Source of the DNA: an uncultured Acidobacteriota bacterium
Lineage (GTDB): Bacteria; Acidobacteriota; Terriglobia; Acidiferrales; UBA7541
Length of the DNA: 64,000 nucleotides
Assembly: GCA_963749435.1 (NCBI GenBank)
Contig: CAVVMU010000010.1
Location: 570,678 to 634,677, forward strand
Reading direction: 5' to 3'
This document shows positions 11,162 to 19,454 of this stretch, piece after piece. Every line of letters starts with the position of its first letter. Position 1 is the first letter of the stretch. The translations under genes were made by a program, and so were the position numbers. The notes under the pieces were generated by a model that searched no databases, was not told where the DNA came from, and was given only the letters and a program-made list of their open reading frames with translations.

Positions 11162-11824
11162 ATGGAGATGGCGCAGGAAATCGAAATCAAACTCAAGATC
11201 AACGACCCAAACTCCCTTCGGGCCAGACTCAAGCGCCTCGGCGCCCGCCTCGTCGGCGGGGGAACGGGCCGCGTCCATGAGTGGAACGTCATTTTCGACA
11301 AGCCGGACGGCTCTCTTGCCAAACAGGGACAACTCCTCCGGATTCGCACGGAGACGCCCGAACGCAAGTTGAAAAAACCTGGCAAAGCGCCCGCGCAGCG
11401 CGTCCTGCTTACCTTCAAGCGACCGGTAGCCATAGCTTCGGAGGCTTCCGGCAACGCCCAAGACAACCATCGCCACAAAGTAAGGGAAGAGTTTGAACTC
11501 CAGGTCACCGATGCCGATGTCCTCACAAAGATTTTCGAAGGTCTCGGGATGAAGGGATGGTTCCGCTACGAAAAGCACCGCACAACGTTCCGCTTGCCGG
11601 CGGCAGCGCATTGGGCACAAGGACTGTTAATCGAGGTCGATGAGACTCCCATCGGCACCTATGTCGAGCTGGAAGGGCCGCCCGCCGCAATTGACCGGGC
11701 CGCTCAGGAACTCGGGTTCACAGCCCAGGACTACATTGTGATGAACTACCTCAGCCTCTATGTGGAGGACTGCCGCCGGCAGGGCAAGGAACCGAAAGAT
11801 ATGGTCTTCGCAGCCACGAAGTAG
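11162..11824 (+). CDS. CYTH-domain protein (class IV adenylate cyclase / triphosphatase-like)
   Basis: 220-aa ORF starting MAQEIEIKLKI (the ExExK CYTH signature), with later acidic strands (LIEVDETPIGTYVELE). Confidence 0.8.
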   Translation: MEMAQEIEIKLKINDPNSLRARLKRLGARLVGGGTGRVHEWNVIFDKPDGSLAKQGQLLRIRTETPERKLKKPGKAPAQRVLLTFKRPVAIASEASGNAQDNHRHKVREEFELQVTDADVLTKIFEGLGMKGWFRYEKHRTTFRLPAAAHWAQGLLIEVDETPIGTYVELEGPPAAIDRAAQELGFTAQDYIVMNYLSLYVEDCRRQGKEPKDMVFAATK

Positions 11825-11874: not shown

Positions 11875-11903
11875 TTGACAATGAAACGCGCCGGGCTTAT
11901 CAC
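11875..11903 (+). promoter_or_regulatory. Sigma70-like promoter: TTGACA - 17 nt - TATCAC
   Basis: TTGACA at 11875-11880, a 17-nt spacer, and TATCAC at 11898-11903. It lies in an ORF-free gap 50 nt after the CYTH gene stop. Confidence 0.4.
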
Positions 11904-12256
11904 TGCTCCAGCGACTGCGAATTGGTGCTTCAATTGCTCCCATCGCGGTTCGCGAGCGCATGGCGACATATCTGCCTCCATGCAGGAGTGGATTCTCTTC
12001 CGATGAGTGCGTCCAACGAACGGGAGCCTGGCCCCAGTCGCTCGAATGTAGTGCTGTTCAGTACAGAGCGGCTTGGGAAGGGCACTTGGGCAACGCCGCG
12101 CGAGGCGCAATTCCTTCCGCAGGCGGTTGGGTGGGGAGGGTCTGCATCGGGCTAACGGTAAGTCCATTTTTCTCAGGCACTTGCCCGCGGCCGAGCTTGT
12201 TTTCGGTACGCGGGTTTTTTGTTTGTGGATGTGGTGTTCGCGGTTTGAGGTAGCAC
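11904..12256 (+). promoter_or_regulatory. Long non-coding 5' leader of the MgtE_N/CBS - NRAMP operon (candidate riboswitch/attenuator; class unassigned)
   Basis: About 350 nt with no convincing ORF. Bounded by the promoter above and ending in an intrinsic terminator 37 nt before the ATG at 12257. Possible long-range helix GCGACTG (11911-11917) / CAGTCGC (12035-12041). Confidence 0.35.
12184..12220 (+). terminator. Intrinsic terminator-like hairpin inside the leader
   Basis: CCCGCG-G-CCGA / loop GCTTGTTT / TCGG-TA-CGCGGG (10 bp with a small bulge) followed by TTTTTTGTTTG. Confidence 0.6.
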
Positions 12257-13498
12257 ATGGAAATTTACGCAACGGAACTTATGGGCGCGGAAGCCTACGA
12301 CGCGCAAGGCAATTTCGTTGGCCGCGTGCGCGAATTCTTTATCGAGCCTTCGCAAGCGACCAACCGTCTGTCGCATTTCCTGCTTTCCCGCGGCAAATTC
12401 CAGCCACTGATGGCACGGCACGACCAGATAGCGACGTTTGCTCCTGGGACGGTGCGCCTGAACGTAAGCGAGCGCGCTTTGCAGCTTTACGAGCCGAACG
12501 AGTCCCTCCTGGCCGTTCGCAAGGATTTGATGGACCAGCAGATTATCGACACGCGGGGCCGCAAAGTCGTCCGTGTGAACGATGTCGACCTTACCGAAAT
12601 GAAGACCAACGGAAACGTAGAACTGAGAGTGACACAGGTCGACGTGGGATTGCCAGGCGCGGTACGGCGCCTCCTGCAAGGTGTTGTTTCCCCGGGAATG
12701 ATCCGCAGGCTGCAAAGCAAACTGCCGCAGAGCGCCATTCGCTGGGAATTCGTGAACCTGATCGAGTCCGACCCGCTTAGGCGCGTAAAGTTGCGCATCA
12801 CTCACGAAAAGTTGGAAGACCTGCACCCTGCTGACCTCGCCGAGATTATGGAAGACCTATCTGCGTCGGAACGGCAGGGAATTATCGCTTCTCTCGACGA
12901 AGAGACGGCAGCAGCTGTCCTCGCCGAGCTGGATGAGCGCTTGACCACACAGATCGTCGAGAAGCTGGACCCGGAGAAAGCTGCCGACATTCTCGAAGAG
13001 ATGGCGCCGGATGCTGCCGCCGATCTATTAGCGGACCTACCGAAAGAGACCTCGGAAGAATTGCTGGAAGAGATGCCCGGGCAGGAAGCCGACGAAGTGC
13101 GCGAACTGCTGTCGTTCGATCCTTCGACAGCGGGCGGGATGATGAACACGGAGTTTGTCTTTGTAGGGGAAGGCTCTCATCGCGAAGAAGTGCTGATGTG
13201 GATCCGGAGTCAGGAACTTAACCTCGATCAGCTCGATACCATTGTGCTGCTCGATGGCAAAGCGGAGTACTCCGGAACGGTTTCCGTGGCTCGTTTGCTA
13301 CTGGCCGCGCCGGAGCAGACCATGAAGGACCTGCGAAGCGAGCCGCTCCTGAGCATCGGCGCGGACGCGGATGAAAAAGACGTTTTTGAACTGTTCGACA
13401 AATACAATTTGCGCATGCTCACCGTGATAGATGAAGAGAAACGCCCCATCGGCACGGTTACAGTGGACGACGTTGTTTCGCGGCTGGTACAGAAATAA
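12257..13498 (+). CDS. Soluble MgtE-like cytoplasmic sensor protein (PRC-barrel-like N-terminus + MgtE_N + CBS pair; no transmembrane pore)
   Basis: 413-aa ORF. LHPADLAEIMEDLSASERQGII...AAAVLAELD...AADILEEMAPDAAADLLADLP...EVRELLSFDPSTAGGMMNTEFV is the MgtE N-domain pattern. It is followed by a CBS-pair-like C-terminus (LRMLTVIDEEKRPIGTVTVDDVV). No hydrophobic TM segments. Confidence 0.85.
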   Translation: MEIYATELMGAEAYDAQGNFVGRVREFFIEPSQATNRLSHFLLSRGKFQPLMARHDQIATFAPGTVRLNVSERALQLYEPNESLLAVRKDLMDQQIIDTRGRKVVRVNDVDLTEMKTNGNVELRVTQVDVGLPGAVRRLLQGVVSPGMIRRLQSKLPQSAIRWEFVNLIESDPLRRVKLRITHEKLEDLHPADLAEIMEDLSASERQGIIASLDEETAAAVLAELDERLTTQIVEKLDPEKAADILEEMAPDAAADLLADLPKETSEELLEEMPGQEADEVRELLSFDPSTAGGMMNTEFVFVGEGSHREEVLMWIRSQELNLDQLDTIVLLDGKAEYSGTVSVARLLLAAPEQTMKDLRSEPLLSIGADADEKDVFELFDKYNLRMLTVIDEEKRPIGTVTVDDVVSRLVQK

Positions 13499-13519
13499 AA
13501 AGGTAGTCGGAAGCGGCGG

Positions 13520-14839
13520 ATGAACTGGGAAAGCCTTAAATCGAGCTTTGAGGGACTGCAAACGCGCGGCGAAAATTTGCAGCAGAAGATCCGCGGCCTG
13601 CGCCGCCGTTTGACGCTGCTGCTTGCGGTTGTCGGGCCGGGTCTCATCACCTCGAACGTTGACAACGATGCCGGCGGCATTGCGACGTATTCCCAGGCCG
13701 GCGCCCAGTATGGCTATGCCTTGCTGTGGTCGCTGATTCCCATGACTATCGCGCTGTATGTGACGGAAGAGATGTGCGCTCGAATGGGCGTGATCACCGG
13801 CAAAGGACTCTCGGATCTGATTCGCGAGGAGTTCGGTTTTCGCCCCACCTTTTTTGTGATGATTACGGGTTTCTTCGTGGATTTGGCAAACGTCGTGGCG
13901 GAATTCGCAGGCGTGGCGGCTTCCATGGAAATGTTTCATGTCAGCCGCTACATTGCGGTTCCCATCGCCGCTTTCTTGGTGTGGATTCTGGTCCTTCGAG
14001 GGACCTACCGCCAGGTCGAAGTTATCTTCCTGATTGCCTGCGGATTCTACGTTACGTACATCATTTCCGCGTTCCTGGCCAAACCGGATTGGTTGGAGGC
14101 CGCCAAGCACGTCGTCATTCCGAACCTGAGTTTTAATTCAGGCTACCTGCTCACTCTAACCGCGCTCATAGGCACCACCATTGCTCCCTGGCAGTTTTTC
14201 TACCTACAGGCGGGGTTCGTGGAAAAGAAAGTGGGGCCAAGACAGTATCCACAAGCGCGCGCCGATGTTCTGGTAGGCAGCATCAGTTGCATGGTCATCG
14301 TATTTTTCATCATCGTTGCCACGGCAGCGACTTTGTATGTTTCGGGTCAGCGCGATATCACCGATGCGGTCCAGGCGGCCAAAGCGCTGATCCCCCTTGC
14401 GGGCAAATGGGCTGGATTTACTTTCGCCTTCGGCCTGCTGAATGCCTCGTTGTTCGCGGCCTCGATTTTGCCCCTCTCGACGGCTCACGTAATATGCGAA
14501 GGGCTCGGGTTTGAGGCGGGGATCGACCACAAATTCAAAGATGCGAAAATCTTTTACGGCCTCTATACGGTTTTGATTGCCGTCGGCGCGGGCATCATTT
14601 TGATCCCGCACGTTCCCATCTGGAAGATCTTCATTTTTTCGCAAGTAGGGAATGGCATTTGGCTGCCGGTGGTGGTCATCTTCATTTTGCTGCTGGTGAA
14701 CCGGCGCGAGCTGATGGGCGAACACGTGAACACCCTCGCGTTTAATATCGTGGCTTGGGTCACCGCGATTGCCATGATCATCCTGACTCTCGTACTGGTC
14801 TACACCTCGATCTTCCAGGCCGCTCCGCCCCAGCTCTGA
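13520..14839 (+). CDS. NRAMP/SLC11-family transporter with NRMT-like (Mg2+-type) binding-site substitutions
   Basis: 439-aa polytopic ORF. The TM1 motif GPGLITSNVDNDAGGIATYSQAGAQYGY aligns to the canonical ...DPGN...QAGA, giving DPGN -> DAGG. The TM6 motif GTTIAPWQFFYLQ aligns to G(A)xxMPHNLYLHS, giving MPH -> APW. Confidence 0.85.
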   Translation: MNWESLKSSFEGLQTRGENLQQKIRGLRRRLTLLLAVVGPGLITSNVDNDAGGIATYSQAGAQYGYALLWSLIPMTIALYVTEEMCARMGVITGKGLSDLIREEFGFRPTFFVMITGFFVDLANVVAEFAGVAASMEMFHVSRYIAVPIAAFLVWILVLRGTYRQVEVIFLIACGFYVTYIISAFLAKPDWLEAAKHVVIPNLSFNSGYLLTLTALIGTTIAPWQFFYLQAGFVEKKVGPRQYPQARADVLVGSISCMVIVFFIIVATAATLYVSGQRDITDAVQAAKALIPLAGKWAGFTFAFGLLNASLFAASILPLSTAHVICEGLGFEAGIDHKFKDAKIFYGLYTVLIAVGAGIILIPHVPIWKIFIFSQVGNGIWLPVVVIFILLLVNRRELMGEHVNTLAFNIVAWVTAIAMIILTLVLVYTSIFQAAPPQL

Positions 14840-14952: not shown

Positions 14953-15798
14953 GTGCAACTCACCAAATCACACACGACGCTGCAAGTTTCCGCCTCCGGC
15001 GCGCTGGGACCTCTGACACCCGAGGAAGCTATCCTCTTTGAAAAACTGGATTTGGGACGCTTGCCGCGGCACGTCGCCGTCATTATGGACGGCAATGGCC
15101 GCTGGGCACAGCAACGGCATTTGCCACGCGTGGCGGGTCACCGCTCGGGCACTAAAACCGCCCGTACCACCATCGAAACGTGCGCGCGGCTGAACATTGA
15201 GGCGCTTACTCTTTACGCTTTCTCGGTGGAGAATTGGCGGCGTCCAAAAGCAGAAATCGATTTTCTGATGCAATTGCTGCGCGAATATCTGCGCCGCGAA
15301 ATGCCTCTGCTGCAAAAGAATGACATTCGCATGAAGTTTTTGGGACGCACGGACGAGCTCCCCAAAGGCGTGCAGGATGACGTGCGCGATGCCATGGAAC
15401 GTACCGCCGGAAACAAGGGCATGGTGCTCTGCGTGGCGCTGAATTACGGTGGCCGCGCGGAAATCGTTGACGCAGTGAATGCCATTCTGGCGGAACAGAA
15501 TGGGCACGCGGGCCACGCAGCGATCACGGAAGAAGCGCTCGCGCAGCACATGTATACGAGCGGGTTGCCCGACCCTGATTTGCTTATCCGCACAAGCGGG
15601 GAGATGCGCGTCAGCAATTTTCTACTCTGGCAAATCGCCTATGCCGAGATTTTTGTCACCGAGACTTTGTGGCCGGATTTCAATCGCGCGCGGCTTCTCG
15701 AAGCGCTCGTCGAATTCCAGAAGCGCGAACGCCGCTATGGCGGTATCCGCGAAGGCCAGCCCAACACCGAGACATCCGCCCGCGTCGTCGGCGAGTGA
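14953..15798 (+). CDS. uppS: Isoprenyl transferase / undecaprenyl diphosphate synthase
   Basis: 281-aa ORF (GTG start) with LPRHVAVIMDGNGRWA, FSVENWRRP and RTSGEMRVSNFLLWQIAYAE. Confidence 0.93.
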   Translation: MQLTKSHTTLQVSASGALGPLTPEEAILFEKLDLGRLPRHVAVIMDGNGRWAQQRHLPRVAGHRSGTKTARTTIETCARLNIEALTLYAFSVENWRRPKAEIDFLMQLLREYLRREMPLLQKNDIRMKFLGRTDELPKGVQDDVRDAMERTAGNKGMVLCVALNYGGRAEIVDAVNAILAEQNGHAGHAAITEEALAQHMYTSGLPDPDLLIRTSGEMRVSNFLLWQIAYAEIFVTETLWPDFNRARLLEALVEFQKRERRYGGIREGQPNTETSARVVGE

Positions 15799-15857
15799 TT
15801 TTTTTCTCCTAGACACCTCTGAGGGGTACTTTCCGCACGAATTTGTGACCCTCCCCC

Positions 15858-16796
15858 GTGATTTATTTCTCTCGATGTGATGAGATGGAACCTGCGATTC
15901 GTCAGGGGAATTCCATTTCAATGACTTGGTTGCGTGTAGCGACAGCCGCTGTTTTGATTCCGTGTGTGCTCGGCCTGGTGCTGTGGGGTTCGACCGGCGC
16001 GATGGCCATCGGCCTCGCCCTCGTCATTCTTCTTGCTCTCTTTGAATATTTTGCCTTGGGCGACGCCATTGGCCACCGCGCGTATCGTTTCTGGACGGCG
16101 GCCTGCGCATTGGGTCTTGTCTACGTGCAGTGGCTGGCCGCCATTGCTCCGTCGTACGATCTCGCGGGCGGACTAACCATCCATCGCATGGTGGGCAGAA
16201 TCTTGGGAATCATTCCCACCGTACAGGACGTTTTTTTTATTTTCGTACTCGGCGTAGCGGCACTGACTCTTTGGACGAAGCGCCCGATCGTCGAGGCCCT
16301 GCCCGCGGCGGGCATCAGTGCCAGCGGATTGCTCTTCGTCGCCTTTCCCCTGACCTTCACGATTCGCCTGCACGGATATAGTGCCGATGGTCCGAAGCTC
16401 CTCATGTTTGCTCTGGTCATCACCTGGGTTGGCGATACTTCCGCGTATTTTGCAGGCCGCGCACTCGGCAAGCATCGGATGGCGCCGGTGCTCAGCCCCA
16501 AAAAAACTTGGGAGGGAACGGTTGCAAGCCTTTTTGGCGCGATGCTCGTCGCCGTTGTGTTTGCCAAATTTCTCAACGTGCCGTTGCCGCATTTGCTGGC
16601 CATGGCTGCCGTCGGCAATTTCGCGGGCCAAGCCGGCGACCTGCTCGAATCCGCATACAAGCGCAGCGCGGGAGTAAAGGATTCCGGTTCGCTCCTGCCT
16701 GGGCATGGCGGCGTGCTTGACCGAATCGATGCCTTGATACTGGCCATCCCCGTTGTCTGGTACTATTGGATTTGGATCTACATTCCCAGCCGGTAG
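15858..16796 (+). CDS. cdsA: Phosphatidate cytidylyltransferase
   Basis: Polytopic ORF with the CdsA signature SAYKRSAGVKDSGSLLPGHGGVLDRIDAL. The true start is probably the internal MTWLRV... Confidence 0.9.
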   Translation: MIYFSRCDEMEPAIRQGNSISMTWLRVATAAVLIPCVLGLVLWGSTGAMAIGLALVILLALFEYFALGDAIGHRAYRFWTAACALGLVYVQWLAAIAPSYDLAGGLTIHRMVGRILGIIPTVQDVFFIFVLGVAALTLWTKRPIVEALPAAGISASGLLFVAFPLTFTIRLHGYSADGPKLLMFALVITWVGDTSAYFAGRALGKHRMAPVLSPKKTWEGTVASLFGAMLVAVVFAKFLNVPLPHLLAMAAVGNFAGQAGDLLESAYKRSAGVKDSGSLLPGHGGVLDRIDALILAIPVVWYYWIWIYIPSR

Positions 16797-16858
16797 GTTC
16801 CTAGGGCCTTCCAATCAAGTGCGGTAGCCAGACGATCGAGTCTGTCCCGCCAGGTTCA

Positions 16859-18073
16859 TTGCAAAACGGAGAAGAGAATTTTTTGAAACAGCTATCCATT
16901 TTGGGTTCCACAGGTTCGATTGGGCGTCAGTGTCTTTCTGTCGTGGAATCGTTGTCGGAGCGATTTGGAGTCGTTGCGCTGGCTGCCGGCGGCAACCTCG
17001 AAGAGCTCACTGGTCAGATTGAACGCCACCGGCCCGAAGTAGTCTCTGTCGGCGACGCGAAGAAAGCGGATGAATTAGCTTCCGCTCTCCGTGCCAAAGG
17101 TGTTTCTCCTCTCCCCGCAATTCATCACGGTCGCGAAGGAATGCTCGCAGTCGGAACGCACGCGAAAGCCGACATCGTCGTTTCTGCGGCAGTTGGCGTC
17201 GTGGGCCTTGAAGCCACCTACGAAGCAGTCAAACTTGGAAAAATTGTCGCGCTTTCGAACAAGGAAGTTTTAGTGGCCGCGGGCGAATTGGTGATGGCTG
17301 CCGCGAAGAAGGCCGGCCGGGAATTGCTGCCTGTGGATAGCGAGCACAACGCCGTCCACCAATGTTTGCGCGGCGGAACGCACAGCGAAGTCCGCCGCCT
17401 GGTGCTGACCGCGAGCGGTGGACCGTTTCGCAAAACGCCACTCGCCGAACTCGAAAACGTGTCGCCCGAGCAGGCGCTCGCGCATCCAAATTGGAAGATG
17501 GGCAACCGCATCACCATCGATTCCGCGACGATGATGAACAAAGGTTTCGAGGTGATCGAGGCGCGCTGGCTCTTCGGCGTGCGGCCTGACCAGATCGACG
17601 TCGTGATTCACCCGCAGTCCACGATTCACTCGATGGTCGAGTTCGTCGATGGTTCGATTCTCGCGCAACTCGGGCCAACCGATATGCGAATGCCCATCCA
17701 ATATGCGTTAACCTATCCGGAGAGAGCAGCGTCTAATCAAATAGCCCTGGATTGGCGCAAGCTGCGGCGGTTGGATTTCGCAAAAGTTTCCACGCGGCGT
17801 TTTCCCTGCCTTCGTCTAGCCCGCGAAGCGATGAAGAAAGGCGGGGCATTGCCGTGCGCGCTGAACGCGGCGGATGAGGTGGCCGTGGCCGCGTTTCTGG
17901 ACCGGCGACTTCCGTTCCTTGGGATTGCGGAAGTGATTGAAGCGGTGCTGGCACGCACGCCGCGTGTGCGCTTTGAAAAGATGGACGATGTTTTGGCCGC
18001 CGATGCGGAAGCGCGGCGCATGGCGAAAGAAGAAGTAGGGCGTTTAGCCGTAAAGGCAGTGGCAGTATCCTAA
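16859..18073 (+). CDS. dxr: 1-deoxy-D-xylulose 5-phosphate reductoisomerase
   Basis: 404-aa ORF (TTG start) with ILGSTGSIGRQ, LANKE-like SNKEVLV and NAADEVAVAAFL. Confidence 0.95.
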   Translation: MQNGEENFLKQLSILGSTGSIGRQCLSVVESLSERFGVVALAAGGNLEELTGQIERHRPEVVSVGDAKKADELASALRAKGVSPLPAIHHGREGMLAVGTHAKADIVVSAAVGVVGLEATYEAVKLGKIVALSNKEVLVAAGELVMAAAKKAGRELLPVDSEHNAVHQCLRGGTHSEVRRLVLTASGGPFRKTPLAELENVSPEQALAHPNWKMGNRITIDSATMMNKGFEVIEARWLFGVRPDQIDVVIHPQSTIHSMVEFVDGSILAQLGPTDMRMPIQYALTYPERAASNQIALDWRKLRRLDFAKVSTRRFPCLRLAREAMKKGGALPCALNAADEVAVAAFLDRRLPFLGIAEVIEAVLARTPRVRFEKMDDVLAADAEARRMAKEEVGRLAVKAVAVS

Positions 18074-18113
18074 GGATCAGAAAAAGGGAACGACAGAAGG
18101 GAACGACGGAGAT

Positions 18114-19454
18114 ATGGCAGCGGTATACCTGATAGTTGGCGTTGGGCTGGTTCTCGGAGTAATGGTCCTCATCCACGAATGGGGACATTTCATCGTCGCG
18201 CGGATGTGTGGCGTGCGCGTGGATGTGTTCTCCATCGGATTTGGTCCGCGTTTGTTTGGTTGGAAGAAGGGGCCGACGGACTATCGAGTGAGCGCGCTGC
18301 CGCTGGGCGGTTACGTGCGCATGGCCGGGCAGGATCTTTCGGAAGTCGATTCAGGAGAGAAACCTCCTACAGGTGCGCCGGATGAACTAATGAGCAAGCC
18401 GCGCTGGCAGAGAGCGCTGATTTCTTTTGCCGGTCCCGCGGTGAACTTGATTTTCCCAATCTTTCTTCTGACGGGGCTTTTCACGTTTGTGGGAATCCCT
18501 TATTCCGCGTATCTCGACTCTCCCGTAAAGATTGCAGCATTGCCTTCGGCCCAAGCGGCCACGAGTCCTTTGAAGGTCGGCGACACAGTCTTGTCTGTGA
18601 ACGGTGTTGCCACACCGAGTTGGGAGCAAGCCTTTCGCACTCTCAAGCTGGCTCCGGCCGGCCAATCGATCAAATTGGAAGTGGAAGAAGGCGGCGCGCG
18701 CCGCACGGTCGAAGTAACTCCTAAGGAAGGAACCGCTGCGGATCGCGTTCTAGGCTACGTACCTATCCGTCCGATTCTTGACCAGGTTGTTCCGGGCACG
18801 CCTGCAGACAAAGCTGGGCTGCGCGAAGGCGACACGATCACCGTGGTGAACGGAAACAAGATCCTATATTGGGAGCAGTTCGTGGAAGCGGTGCAGAGCT
18901 CGAATGGGCAGCCTATCGCGCTCGATGTCGATCGCAAAGGCCAAACCGTTCACACCACAGTGACGCCTAAGAAAGACATCGCGGAATCCGGTGAAAGCGT
19001 CTACCAGATTGGCGTTCTGCGCAGCGACGAGACGGCGTACAAGCGCGTAGCGTTCAGCGAGGGCGTGCGCGTCGCGGGCGCTTCGACGGAAGACACCATC
19101 GTTCGAACCGTGGACGTGGTCGGCAAGCTCCTCAGCGGGCGCGTCTCGATCAAACAGCTTCAGGGCCCCGTGGAAATCTCTCACCAGGCTGGTCAGGCCG
19201 TGCGCAAAGGGCCGCTCAACGTCATCTCCCTGATGGTGTTGATCAGCATCAACCTCGGCATCTTGAATCTCCTGCCGATTCCCATTCTCGATGGCGGAAA
19301 TATTCTGCTGCTGGCCATTGAAGGAATCATGCGGCGCGATTTGAGCCTGAGCTTCAAAGAGCGCTTCGTTCAGGTGGGACTTGTCTTCCTCTTGGTCATC
19401 TTCGCCATCGTTATGTACAATGACATTTTGCGGCGAATCACGAGCCATTCTTAG
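18114..19454 (+). CDS. rseP: RIP metalloprotease RseP (site-2 protease)
   Basis: 446-aa ORF with HEWGHFIVA (HExxH), PDZ-like central region, and NLLPIPILDGG. Confidence 0.92.
   Translation: MAAVYLIVGVGLVLGVMVLIHEWGHFIVARMCGVRVDVFSIGFGPRLFGWKKGPTDYRVSALPLGGYVRMAGQDLSEVDSGEKPPTGAPDELMSKPRWQRALISFAGPAVNLIFPIFLLTGLFTFVGIPYSAYLDSPVKIAALPSAQAATSPLKVGDTVLSVNGVATPSWEQAFRTLKLAPAGQSIKLEVEEGGARRTVEVTPKEGTAADRVLGYVPIRPILDQVVPGTPADKAGLREGDTITVVNGNKILYWEQFVEAVQSSNGQPIALDVDRKGQTVHTTVTPKKDIAESGESVYQIGVLRSDETAYKRVAFSEGVRVAGASTEDTIVRTVDVVGKLLSGRVSIKQLQGPVEISHQAGQAVRKGPLNVISLMVLISINLGILNLLPIPILDGGNILLLAIEGIMRRDLSLSFKERFVQVGLVFLLVIFAIVMYNDILRRITSHS

Follow-up and report, generated by a model that had tools for sequence, protein, structure and literature searches.

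NRMT transporters of the SLC11 (NRAMP) family are a fourth class of bacterial Mg2+ importers that work without H+ coupling. EleNRMT of Eggerthella lenta (PDB 7qia) carries both Mg2+ and Mn2+ with no H+ coupling, and its Thr224 is required for Mg2+ transport and far less for that of Mn2+ (Ramanadane et al. 2022). According to Shin et al. (2014, PLoS Genet 10:e1004429, PMC4072509), most NrmT genes adjoin a gene for a homologue of the MgtE cytoplasmic domain, which was proposed to act in feedback regulation or, alternatively, through "metal chaperone activity". The same study describes control of both genes by an M-box, which is present in many members, not all; the Acidobacterium capsulatum pair ACP_2976/ACP_2977 lacks it. 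When the A. capsulatum genes were expressed in B. subtilis, co-expression of the MgtE-like protein "did not further improve rescue" (PMC4072509).

The locus described here is a genuine two-gene operon and a member of this already described "MgtE-like fragment + nrmT" type. Its first-pass annotation had taken the pairing to be undescribed, which is corrected by the report of Shin et al. (2014, PLoS Genet, PMC4072509). The operons of that study (C. acetobutylicum CA_C0685 and A. capsulatum ACP_2976/ACP_2977) contain the same two families in the same order as the window, by which we mean the whole 64,000-nt stretch of DNA analysed. The A. capsulatum pair shares the window's phylum and the absence of an M-box, although the window comes from a different lineage, an uncultured Acidoferrales-like acidobacterium. 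What is new here is the three-module make-up of the partner protein, the pattern in which it retains MgtE Mg2+ sites, the occurrence of the partner beside relatives of EleNRMT, and a leader with an upstream open reading frame (uORF) and a terminator.

Layout and distribution of the operon

Gene 1 (12257..13498, + strand; 413 aa) encodes a soluble PRC-PRC-MgtE_N-CBS-CBS protein, as established from its open reading frame, domain searches and fold, and gene 2 (13520..14839, + strand; 439 aa) encodes an NRMT-clade SLC11 transporter, assigned from its open reading frame, Pfam and the residues of the ion site. Their coordinates place the two genes on the same strand and in a common reading frame with a 21-nt gap; the open reading frames, their positions and this spacing all agree with the first-pass annotation. 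Direct reading of the sequence shows a Shine-Dalgarno-like GAGG (12247..12250, + strand) 6 nt 5' of the gene 1 ATG, and a GAGG/GGAG element occupies the equivalent position in the aligned intergenic regions of relatives.

The order of partner followed by NRMT was found in all related metagenome loci of sufficient extent. A genome scan for NRMT loci, with a 13-sequence NRMT alignment as query, showed the partner adjoining the NRMT in 54 of the 75 species-level loci with enough upstream sequence, including WOR-3, Nitrospirota, Binatia, Smithella and Aminicenantes; the other 21 had no partner inside 4 kb. Eggerthellaceae, which belong to another phylum, have the same pair with the genes 4 nt apart or overlapping by 1 nt, and their partner shares 31% identity with gene 1 across residues 3-405. 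The partner also precedes the NRMT in close relatives of EleNRMT. Throughout, the order is partner then NRMT, and the junctions are very short or overlapping, in at least three phyla. Conservation of gene order across genomes had been named beforehand as a check on the pairing, and the metagenome loci, the genome loci and the Eggerthellaceae all display it; adjacency of partner and NRMT is well beyond chance.

Full-length fusions of the two proteins, sought as a proxy for interaction, were absent among 150 NRMT representatives and the 240 partner homologues listed. Two contig-end fragments (P0213 and P0193) carry a CBS domain N-terminal to an Nramp domain and may be merged gene calls. The idea that the NRMTs without a partner form a distinct paralogue clade was not supported, as they are scattered over the Terriglobales part of the tree.

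The partner protein and the transporter

Pfam searches of gene 1 identified PRC (PF05239) at residues 2-48 (E 6.9e-07), MgtE_N at residues 189-289 (E 6.4e-28) and CBS at residues 357-410 (E 1.2e-08); the PRC tandem, the MgtE_N domain and the CBS pair are encoded on the + strand at approximately 12257-12751, 12803-13123 and 13130-13492, respectively. The NCBIfam mgtE model (TIGR00400) matches gene 1 at profile positions 15-249 of 450 only and scores 125.6 bits, where its cut-off is 232.75 bits, indicating that gene 1 corresponds to the cytoplasmic half of MgtE without the pore. The C-terminal K413 aligns near residue 255 of T. thermophilus MgtE, and neither that alignment nor the mgtE model reveals a plug helix or a transmembrane domain (the MgtE pore has five TM helices). 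Given this end point and the partial, sub-cut-off match to TIGR00400, gene 1 is not an MgtE channel. Residues 174-409 align to the cytosolic domain of T. thermophilus MgtE (2yvy) with E 2.4e-27, and the predicted fold of gene 1 superposes on it with a Foldseek TM of 0.78 (target-normalised; rmsd 3.7 Å over 240 columns). The initial description of an MgtE_N domain and CBS pair without a membrane pore is thus borne out by Pfam, the partial mgtE match and the 2yvy fold. Gene 1 shares the MgtE_N superhelical domain and the CBS pair with the MgtE cytosolic domain (T. thermophilus 2yvy, 2zy9) at about 30% identity, and differs from it by an additional 170-aa N-terminal tandem PRC module.

This N-terminal segment of 170 aa is predicted to form a single compact two-module beta domain (pLDDT 90.9, pTM 0.83), and among PDB structures it most resembles the PRC-barrel proteins CdpB1/CdpB2, MTH1859, RimM and the reaction-centre H subunit. 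The second PRC module is recognised from fold and sequence pattern alone. Together with the PF05239 match at residues 2-48, the model and these matches confirm the "PRC-barrel-like repeats" noted earlier. The beta-barrel fold is shared with CdpB1/CdpB2 (8qzo; Foldseek E 4e-5, single-barrel TM about 0.7, target-normalised), the reaction-centre H subunit and the C-terminal domain of RimM, but identity to PRC-barrel proteins is just 9-19%, and fusion of the barrels with MgtE_N and CBS domains is peculiar to the gene 1 family. Members of that family are three-module proteins without exception, about 413-450 aa long. Across 21 diverse homologues the tandem PRC-barrel is the best-conserved segment of the protein, with 8 of the 20 invariant positions in PRC2. 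The excerpted text of Shin et al. (2014) speaks of a "small gene" with homology to the cytoplasmic domain of MgtE and makes no reference to the PRC-barrel module.

We compared the metal and nucleotide sites of MgtE with gene 1 and counted residue conservation over 53 members of the partner family. The Mg4 site (MgtE D91 and D247; gene 1 D252 and D405) and the Mg6 residue (MgtE D95; gene 1 D256) are invariant in all 53. The Mg5 site is gone, D226 being replaced by N384 (Asn in 53/53) and D250 by S408 in gene 1, and at Mg7 the Glu59 of MgtE is Ala in gene 1 and Glu in 29 of the 53. The plug helix is missing from the whole family, and its Mg2+ ligands are therefore absent from gene 1; the ATP-stacking F227 is L385 (Leu throughout the 53), and the ATP-site residues R187 and D188 are A345 and R346 in gene 1. 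The first-pass annotation had credited gene 1 with the Mg2+-sensing gate of MgtE; the Mg4/Mg6 acidic residues of that gate are indeed retained, whereas its Mg5, Mg7 and ATP residues and its plug helix are not. Gene 1 consequently cannot act exactly as the MgtE gate does.

Gene 2 matches the Pfam Nramp family (PF01566, E 1.3e-93), and among solved structures EleNRMT (7qia) is its closest relative, with E 2.3e-100 across residues 29-429, compared with 6e-28 for DraNramp, about 1e-27 for MntH, about 1e-17 for ScaDMT and 8e-17 for plant NRAT among canonical NRAMPs. The NCBIfam MntH model gives 151 bits, well under its cut-off of 430. The signature motifs are N49-D50-A51-G52-G53 and T219-T220-I221-A222-P223-W224; alignment confirmed the residue numbers first assigned to D50-A-G-G53 in TM1 and A222-P-W224 in TM6. 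Residues D50, G53, T219, A222, W224, E128 and Q375 correspond to EleNRMT D55, G58, T224, A227, W229, E133 and Q379, so that the two proteins share the same D, G, T, A, W, helix-3 Glu and helix-10 Gln even though about half of their aligned residues differ. In the TM1 D-x-x-G motif, where Gly replaces the canonical Asn, the Asp is present in 41 and the Gly in 35 of 43 diverse clade members. The TM6 T-x-x-A motif of gene 2 has Thr (T219) in place of Ala and has lost the Met ligand (A222), a position that is Thr, Ala or Ser in 41 of the 43. On helix 6b, W224 and L229 of gene 2 and W229 and N234 of EleNRMT stand where the histidines of the H+ pathway would be; none of these residues is protonatable, and the absence of the histidines is consistent with uncoupled transport. 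As first proposed, then, gene 2 falls in the NRMT clade and not in the Mn2+/Fe2+ clade, judging from the E values for EleNRMT and DraNramp and from the match of the ion-site residues. Close agreement with EleNRMT at all defining residues predicts transport of Mg2+ and Mn2+; gene 2 probably is an NRMT-type SLC11 carrier for H+-uncoupled import of hydrated Mg2+ (and Mn2+).

An NRMT-type site alone does not establish Mg2+ as the physiological substrate in Acidobacteriota, given how A. capsulatum NrmT behaved in B. subtilis: rescue of a Mn2+ transport mutant was complete, whereas Mg2+ auxotrophy was rescued at low-millimolar Mg2+ only, and Shin et al. (PMC4072509) call it probably a Mn2+ transporter whose partner may respond to manganese. 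The acidobacterial pair might then be a Mn2+ system in which the NRMT imports mainly Mn2+ and gene 1 senses or buffers that ion, in keeping with the rescue pattern, the authors' suggestion, the carriage of Mn2+ by EleNRMT as well, and the lack of an M-box before the window operon. However, gene 2 retains as T219 the Thr found at EleNRMT T224, the acidic residues kept by gene 1 belong to MgtE Mg2+ sites, a bona fide M-box Mg2+ riboswitch precedes the same gene pair in other Acidobacteriota, and heterologous complementation shows capacity, not physiological role. We regard a Mn2+ system as unlikely.

Leader region of the operon

A promoter-like element (11875..11903, + strand) consists of TTGACA at 11875-11880, a 17-nt spacer and TATCAC at 11898-11903. 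Both the TTGAC box and a downstream "GCTTATCA" box keep their positions across 34 aligned intergenic regions, suggesting that the element may act as a promoter; a strict sigma-70 scan did not call it.

Downstream lies an unannotated 50-codon uORF (12003-12155, or to 12161 with its second stop; + strand) for a putative leader peptide, MSASNEREPGPS...AVGWGGSASG, which ends in tandem in-frame stops (TAA 12153-12155 and TAA 12159-12161). Of 74 unique homologous sequences, 96% keep this frame open over 48 codons or more, compared with 15% and 5% for the other frames. Third codon positions in the homologous sequences show about twice the entropy of the first and second, a sense codon never takes the place of the first stop (TAA in 50 sequences, TAG in 13, TGA in 2), and length varies in-frame from 38 to 62 aa. 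Frame openness, third-position bias and stop-codon switching make up comparative evidence that the uORF is translated. Once this coding signature appeared, a purely structural RNA or a new riboswitch was rejected as the main reading of the leader; some RNA-level constraint on the uORF stays, since the third positions of its Gly codons are frozen. The peptide is conserved at its ends only, with a hypervariable middle, and such peptides were not found among 15 billion predicted proteins. Near its N-terminus, after S, A, S and N, residues 6-11 form an E-x-E-P-G-P motif with E6, E8, P9 and P11. This composition fits the criterion for intrinsic ribosome destabilisation, at least four D/E/P residues in 6 (Chadani et al.), marking the motif as a putative destabiliser.

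The uORF is followed by an intrinsic terminator (12184..12224, + strand), identified by energy and conservation, in which the hairpin CCCGCGGCCGAG-cttgtt-TTCGGTACGCGGG (12184-12214; -18.7 kcal/mol) precedes the T-rich tract TTTTTTGTTT. Across 68 sequences the hairpin is conserved: 92% of cells are paired, compared with 23-51% in slid controls, and one pair covaries. A predicted 18-bp alternative, anti-terminator helix (-27.8 kcal/mol) is 83% paired across 68 sequences; its covariation was not above that of shuffles, and the pairing was nearly as frequent in composition-matched shuffles (94% vs 100%). Covariation thus lends the anti-terminator no support, and the shuffle control shows the pairing to be mostly a composition effect, for which reason we put forward an attenuation mechanism by inference only. 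A search of indexed RNA runs turned up none that contains this stretch. An Rfam search of the window leader with E up to 10 returned noise (SOX2OT, Pyrobaculum sRNA) and no M-box (RF00380), and the possibility of a divergent M-box was dropped as well. In other Acidobacteriota an M-box does lie at this position upstream of the partner, with 124 bits in locus L124 and 115 bits in L104.

Genes 1 and 2 could nonetheless be transcribed unattenuated from another promoter, the uORF being a free-standing small protein or the terminator ending a separate transcript, as might be argued from an anti-terminator that finds support in neither covariation nor shuffle controls and from the negative strict promoter scan. 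Against this, the gene 1 ATG of the window lies only about 32 nt beyond the end of the T-rich tract (12224), and the first T-run in relatives starts 21-110 nt 5' of the ATG, at 21-31 nt in L076, L084, L093 and L094, among others; gaps as short as the window's could hardly hold an additional promoter with its 5' UTR. Moreover, a hypervariable middle between conserved ends is unusual for a folded protein, and the M-box, likewise a terminator-type switch, sits at the same position in relatives. An unattenuated operon thus appears quite improbable.

Proposed regulation and comparison with known systems

Gene 1 is most likely a detachable cytoplasmic regulatory subunit of gene 2, and the pairing is best explained by a putative Mg2+ gate acting in trans. 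In the mechanism we propose, the tandem PRC-barrel module would dock the gene 1 protein onto the cytoplasmic face of the transporter, and cytoplasmic Mg2+ at the retained Mg4/Mg6-type acidic sites would cause the MgtE_N and CBS modules to close together. Closure would throttle uptake, so that the uncoupled carrier would gain negative feedback of the sort built into MgtE. The leader, with its promoter-like element, translated uORF and intrinsic terminator, would set expression of both genes: at low Mg2+, destabilised ribosomes would abort translation of the uORF at its E-x-E-P-G-P motif, the terminator would not form and the operon would be read through. Physical contact between gene 1 and the NRMT, the direction of regulation, Mg2+ as the ion sensed and attenuation in the leader are the inferred elements of this scheme. 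We give the account as a whole, comprising a known operon type, an NRMT carrier, gene 1 as its regulatory subunit and control by the leader, about an even chance of being correct. The more specific proposal, that an undescribed uORF attenuator has here replaced the M-box and that gene 1 is a PRC-docked, Mg2+-gated detachable lid on a carrier of unrelated fold, is tentative and rather doubtful as a combination.

Mg2+ is a freely diffusing, millimolar ion with no known chaperones. Both points weigh against a gene 1 protein that, instead of gating transport, receives the ion from the transporter as a metallochaperone or cytoplasmic acceptor; metal chaperone activity is the alternative offered by Shin et al. 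(2014, PMC4072509). Although the gene 1 protein is rich in acidic residues and tightly co-encoded with the transporter, as such a role would lead one to expect, its conserved domains are those of a known allosteric sensor, the MgtE_N/CBS clamp, and conservation peaks in the protein-docking PRC module, not in the acidic sites alone, which leaves a chaperone very unlikely. That gene 1 acts on some other target, such as the ribosome or the cell envelope, and adjoins the NRMT through shared Mg2+-responsive expression only is hardly credible: PRC barrels do occur in RimM (ribosome maturation) and CdpB (cell division) and 21 of 75 NRMTs have no adjacent partner, but the order is consistent and the junctions very short or overlapping in at least three phyla, and no additional domain pointing to another pathway was found among the 240 partner homologues listed.

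How an H+-uncoupled NRMT avoids overloading the cell with Mg2+ would most obviously be answered by the conserved partner, which was set aside after a single negative complementation test in 2014. Experimental handles are provided by the partner beside EleNRMT relatives, by the conservation of the PRC tandem and by the retention of Mg4/Mg6 with loss of Mg5, the ATP-stacking Phe and the plug. EleNRMT was studied alone, yet its close relatives have a partner gene of the gene 1 kind; if gene 1 is the gated lid of the carrier, the biochemistry of EleNRMT alone would cover just one half, the unregulated one, of a system with two subunits.

Compared with the operons of Shin et al. (2014), the window operon has a 50-codon uORF and a terminator in front. 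The M-box (ykoK, Rfam RF00380) of the Acidobacteriota loci L124 and L104 and of Clostridial nrmT operons takes the same position and is also of terminator type, but the window leader has no Rfam match and its conservation is partly protein-coding. If the leader is confirmed, a riboswitch and a leader peptide would interchange at one position. A second point of comparison is mgtL, the leader of enterobacterial mgtA (Chadani et al.), likewise a short uORF that precedes the gene for a Mg2+ importer. Its EPDP and the E-x-E-P-G-P of the uORF are both N-terminal acidic/proline clusters preceded by small residues; the two peptides have no sequence homology and differ in length (17 vs 50 codons), and mgtL works with a Rho-dependent terminator whereas the window uORF is followed by an intrinsic one. 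If confirmed, the leader would represent a second, independently evolved case, this one outside the enterobacteria, of Mg2+ import controlled by a leader peptide.

Domain content and identity of the gene pair

Gene 1 (12257..13498, + strand, 413 aa) and gene 2 (13520..14839, + strand, 439 aa) share strand and frame, and their ORF coordinates confirm the 21-nt spacing recorded in the first-pass annotation. Pfam places a PRC domain (residues 2-48), an MgtE_N domain (residues 189-289) and a CBS domain (residues 357-410) in gene 1. Because the NCBI mgtE model matches only through its cytoplasmic half (profile positions 15-249 of 450), with a score under the cut-off, gene 1 is an MgtE_N-CBS protein without a membrane pore, as first described. 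The T. thermophilus MgtE cytosolic domain aligns to residues 174-409, gene 1 itself stops at the expected start of the plug helix, and an AlphaFold model of gene 1 (mean pLDDT 82.5) superposes on that domain with a TM score of 0.78. Modeled alone, residues 1-170 yield a compact beta domain at high confidence (pLDDT 90.9, pTM 0.83) whose best solved relatives are the PRC-barrel proteins CdpB1/CdpB2, MTH1859, RimM and the reaction-centre H subunit; hence the PRC-barrel-like repeats originally noted at the N-terminus were correctly recognized.

The Nramp domain of gene 2 spans residues 54-405. Among all PDB chains, its best match is the Eggerthella lenta NRMT (EleNRMT, 7qia; E 2.3e-100), whereas canonical MntH/DMT proteins score no better than 1e-27 and the Al3+ transporter of plants 8e-17. 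The altered motifs D50-A-G-G53 and A222-P-W224 had been numbered exactly, and gene 2 matches all site-defining residues of Ramanadane et al. 2022 (D50, G53, T219, A222, W224, E128 and Q375), with Leu at the second helix-6b histidine position. With EleNRMT as its closest structure and these residues matched, gene 2 belongs to the NRMTs, bearing out the proposed NRMT-like site. A scan of 1.8 billion cluster representatives returned 851 proteins at E <= 1e-30, and the signatures D-x-x-G and T-x-x-(A/T/S)-P-(W/Y) predominate in 43 diverse clade members. In two NRMT fragments at contig ends (P0213 and P0193), the Nramp domain is preceded by a CBS domain; these may be rare natural partner-transporter fusions or else merged gene calls.

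Conservation of the pair and its published relatives

The first-pass annotation regarded the pairing, and the idea that gene 1 regulates the transporter, as uncharacterized; Shin et al. 2014 had already described both, with MgtE cytoplasmic-domain homologues next to most NrmT genes and feedback regulation as the proposed role. The window locus is therefore another case of a published partner-nrmT system, which is real and conserved. As described there, the Acidobacterium capsulatum pair ACP_2976/ACP_2977 was assayed in B. subtilis, where NrmT by itself relieved Mg2+ auxotrophy only when Mg2+ was supplied at low-millimolar levels, co-expression of the partner "did not further improve rescue", and a Mn2+ transport mutant was completely rescued by NrmT. 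Rescue of the Mn2+ mutant speaks for the main rival explanation, that acidobacterial partner-NRMT members serve Mn2+, which we consider unlikely. EleNRMT transports both Mg2+ and Mn2+ (not Ca2+, and with no H+ coupling; Ramanadane et al. 2022). Within incomplete literature coverage, we found no later work on the partner or any tying it to a PRC barrel. More novel than the pairing are the conserved tandem PRC module and partly retained MgtE Mg2+ sites of the partner, its presence beside close relatives of EleNRMT, and an unannotated uORF-terminator leader.

The synteny survey upheld the expected linkage and showed it to be widespread. The order CYTH gene, gene 1, NRMT, uppS is kept wherever the contig extends in 80 soil-metagenome loci (gene 1 at 78-98% identity). 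In a separate set of 80 loci, drawn from different GTDB species and with NRMTs of 52-94% identity, 54 contain a gene 1 homologue, which in nearly every case sits immediately upstream in the same orientation; of the remaining 26, 5 are truncated by the contig end and 21 lack a partner within 4 kb. Partner-less loci are dispersed in the Terriglobales part of the tree, and the partner is present throughout both the window's clade and a clade outside Acidobacteriota (WOR-3, Nitrospirota, Binatia, Smithella and Aminicenantes). In Eggerthellaceae, a 450-453-aa PRC+MgtE_N+CBS gene (sharing 31% identity with gene 1 across residues 3-405) precedes NRMTs that are 87-91% identical to the crystallized EleNRMT construct, the genes lying 4 nt apart at one locus and overlapping by 1 nt at the other.

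Several metagenome loci (L049, L051, L054-L057, L059-L061 and L070) combine a gene 1 homologue about 80% identical to that of the window with an NRMT of only about 57-61% identity, as against about 80% for NRMTs of sister loci, which suggests that the transporter gene was replaced or recombined beside a conserved partner. The conserved upstream neighbor throughout the window's lineage is the CYTH-domain (triphosphate tunnel metalloenzyme) gene at 11162-11824. Immediately downstream of the NRMT, on the same strand, lies a conserved uppS-cdsA-dxr-rseP cluster (14953-19454); since the 113 nt that separate uppS from the NRMT stop show no evident terminator with a T-run, read-through into this cluster is possible.

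A putative uORF-terminator leader

The 432 nt that separate gene 1 from the CYTH gene (stop at 11824) contain no Rfam match. Conserved among relatives are a promoter-like element (TTGACA-17 nt-TATCAC, 11875-11903) and, strongly, an intrinsic terminator (12184-12224), and between them sits a uORF (12003-12155), almost always 50 codons long and ending in tandem stop codons. In the window the T-rich tract ends only about 32 nt short of the gene 1 ATG; in relatives the first T-run starts 21-110 nt ahead of the ATG, and this spacer is not conserved. Of 74 unique sequences, 96% keep the uORF frame open over 48 codons or more, compared with 15% and 5% when either of the other frames is read. Entropy at codon position 3 is about twice that at the other two positions, and Pro, Glu, Val and Gly codons vary synonymously. 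TAA (50), TAG (13) and TGA (2) all serve as the first stop, which no sequence replaces by a sense codon; two codons farther on follows an invariant, in-frame second TAA, and length varies in-frame from 38 to 62 aa. The peptide has a conserved N-terminus (S/N-E-L-E-P-G-P) and C-terminus (A-V-G-W-G-G-F-x-x-G) flanking a hypervariable middle, and a divergent subgroup follows the pattern ME.RSSN.EPG...DREARPGLx. The strict peptide motif occurs in 80/95 loci where the gene 1 homologue shares 59% or more identity with gene 1 and in 0/33 at 50% identity or less; its nucleotide motif occurs only once in the window, and none of six peptides queried appears among 15 billion predicted proteins.

Third positions of the Gly codons near the uORF end are frozen, which points to an additional RNA-level constraint there. 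If the 3' arm of the terminator is left out of the folding, uORF codons -10 to -3 pair with the entire 5' arm in the best predicted structure (-27.8 kcal/mol), and when the stop-codon region is masked as if by a ribosome, the terminator is predicted to form. In such a classical attenuator, a ribosome reaching the uORF stop codon would cause termination, and one failing early in the uORF would permit read-through. Residues 6-11 (E-x-E-P-G-P), preceded by small residues, conform to the published description of intrinsic ribosome destabilization, which is stronger at low Mg2+ and is the mode by which MgtL controls mgtA (Chadani et al.). The alternative, anti-terminator helix is 83% paired across 68 sequences; among these, covariation did not exceed that of shuffles, and shuffling the upstream segment left pairing almost as frequent (94% versus 100%). 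For these reasons we regard a translated uORF and terminator gating the operon as likely, and advance Mg2+ sensing through ribosome destabilization at the uORF only as a hypothesis.

Two other Acidobacteriota loci carry a different leader: a high-scoring M-box, the Mg2+ riboswitch, occupies the same position in L124 (124 bits) and L104 (115 bits). In an Acidobacteriaceae MAG, the Acido-Lenti-1 RNA motif (RF01687; L110:2404-2453, 38.8 bits against a gathering score of 37) lies about 170 nt upstream of a gene 1 homologue, and this orphan motif may be another leader of the partner-nrmT operon.

Partner architecture and comparison with MgtE

All 240 partner homologues listed share one three-part architecture and a length of about 413 aa, and none of them is fused to Nramp. 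The most conserved stretch in 21 diverse members is the second PRC-like module (residues 88-165; DLLDQQIIDxxGRKVVRVNDVxL...VDVGxRGAVRRL...W), which contains 8 of 20 invariant positions, and the conserved tandem PRC module is a probable docking element. To examine the Mg2+ sites of MgtE (Mg4, D91/D247; Mg5, D226/D250; Mg6, D95; Mg7, E59; Maruyama et al. 2018), we transferred them to gene 1 through the alignment with the T. thermophilus cytosolic domain. D252/D405 at Mg4 and D256 at Mg6 are kept without exception (53/53 family members). The first Mg5 position is Asn in 53/53, a change corresponding to D226N, one of the two in the MgtE mutant D226N/D250A made to disable this site, and the second is S408 in gene 1. 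At Mg7 the window protein has Ala, and 29/53 members have Glu. At the MgtE ATP-binding residues F227, R187 and D188 (Tomita et al. 2017), gene 1 has Leu (53/53 members), Ala and Arg, and the plug-helix ligands are absent along with the plug helix. Judged from these residues, Mg2+-dependent closure of the N domain onto the CBS pair is plausibly still possible, whereas gene 1 cannot plug a pore in the MgtE manner and probably does not bind ATP as MgtE does. The best-supported explanation, about which we are evenly poised between acceptance and doubt, is that gene 1 is a detachable cytoplasmic Mg2+-responsive regulatory subunit of an uncoupled carrier.

A short, strongly basic tail (e.g. RRGRRRLR, SRKKRRKR), which the window protein lacks, closes some partners outside the window's clade (L122, L130, L132, L134, L148 and L157, from Thermoanaerobaculia, WOR-3, Nitrospirota, Binatia, a deltaproteobacterial MAG and one Acidobacteriota MAG); it may make contact with the membrane or the transporter. 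At two loci the partner gene is split, into ORFs of 326 and 84 aa at L081:2737-3979 (possibly a long-read frameshift) and into a separate 107-aa PRC ORF and a 249-aa MgtE_N-CBS ORF at L120:2652-3934. The split partner reported for C. acetobutylicum resembles these two genes.
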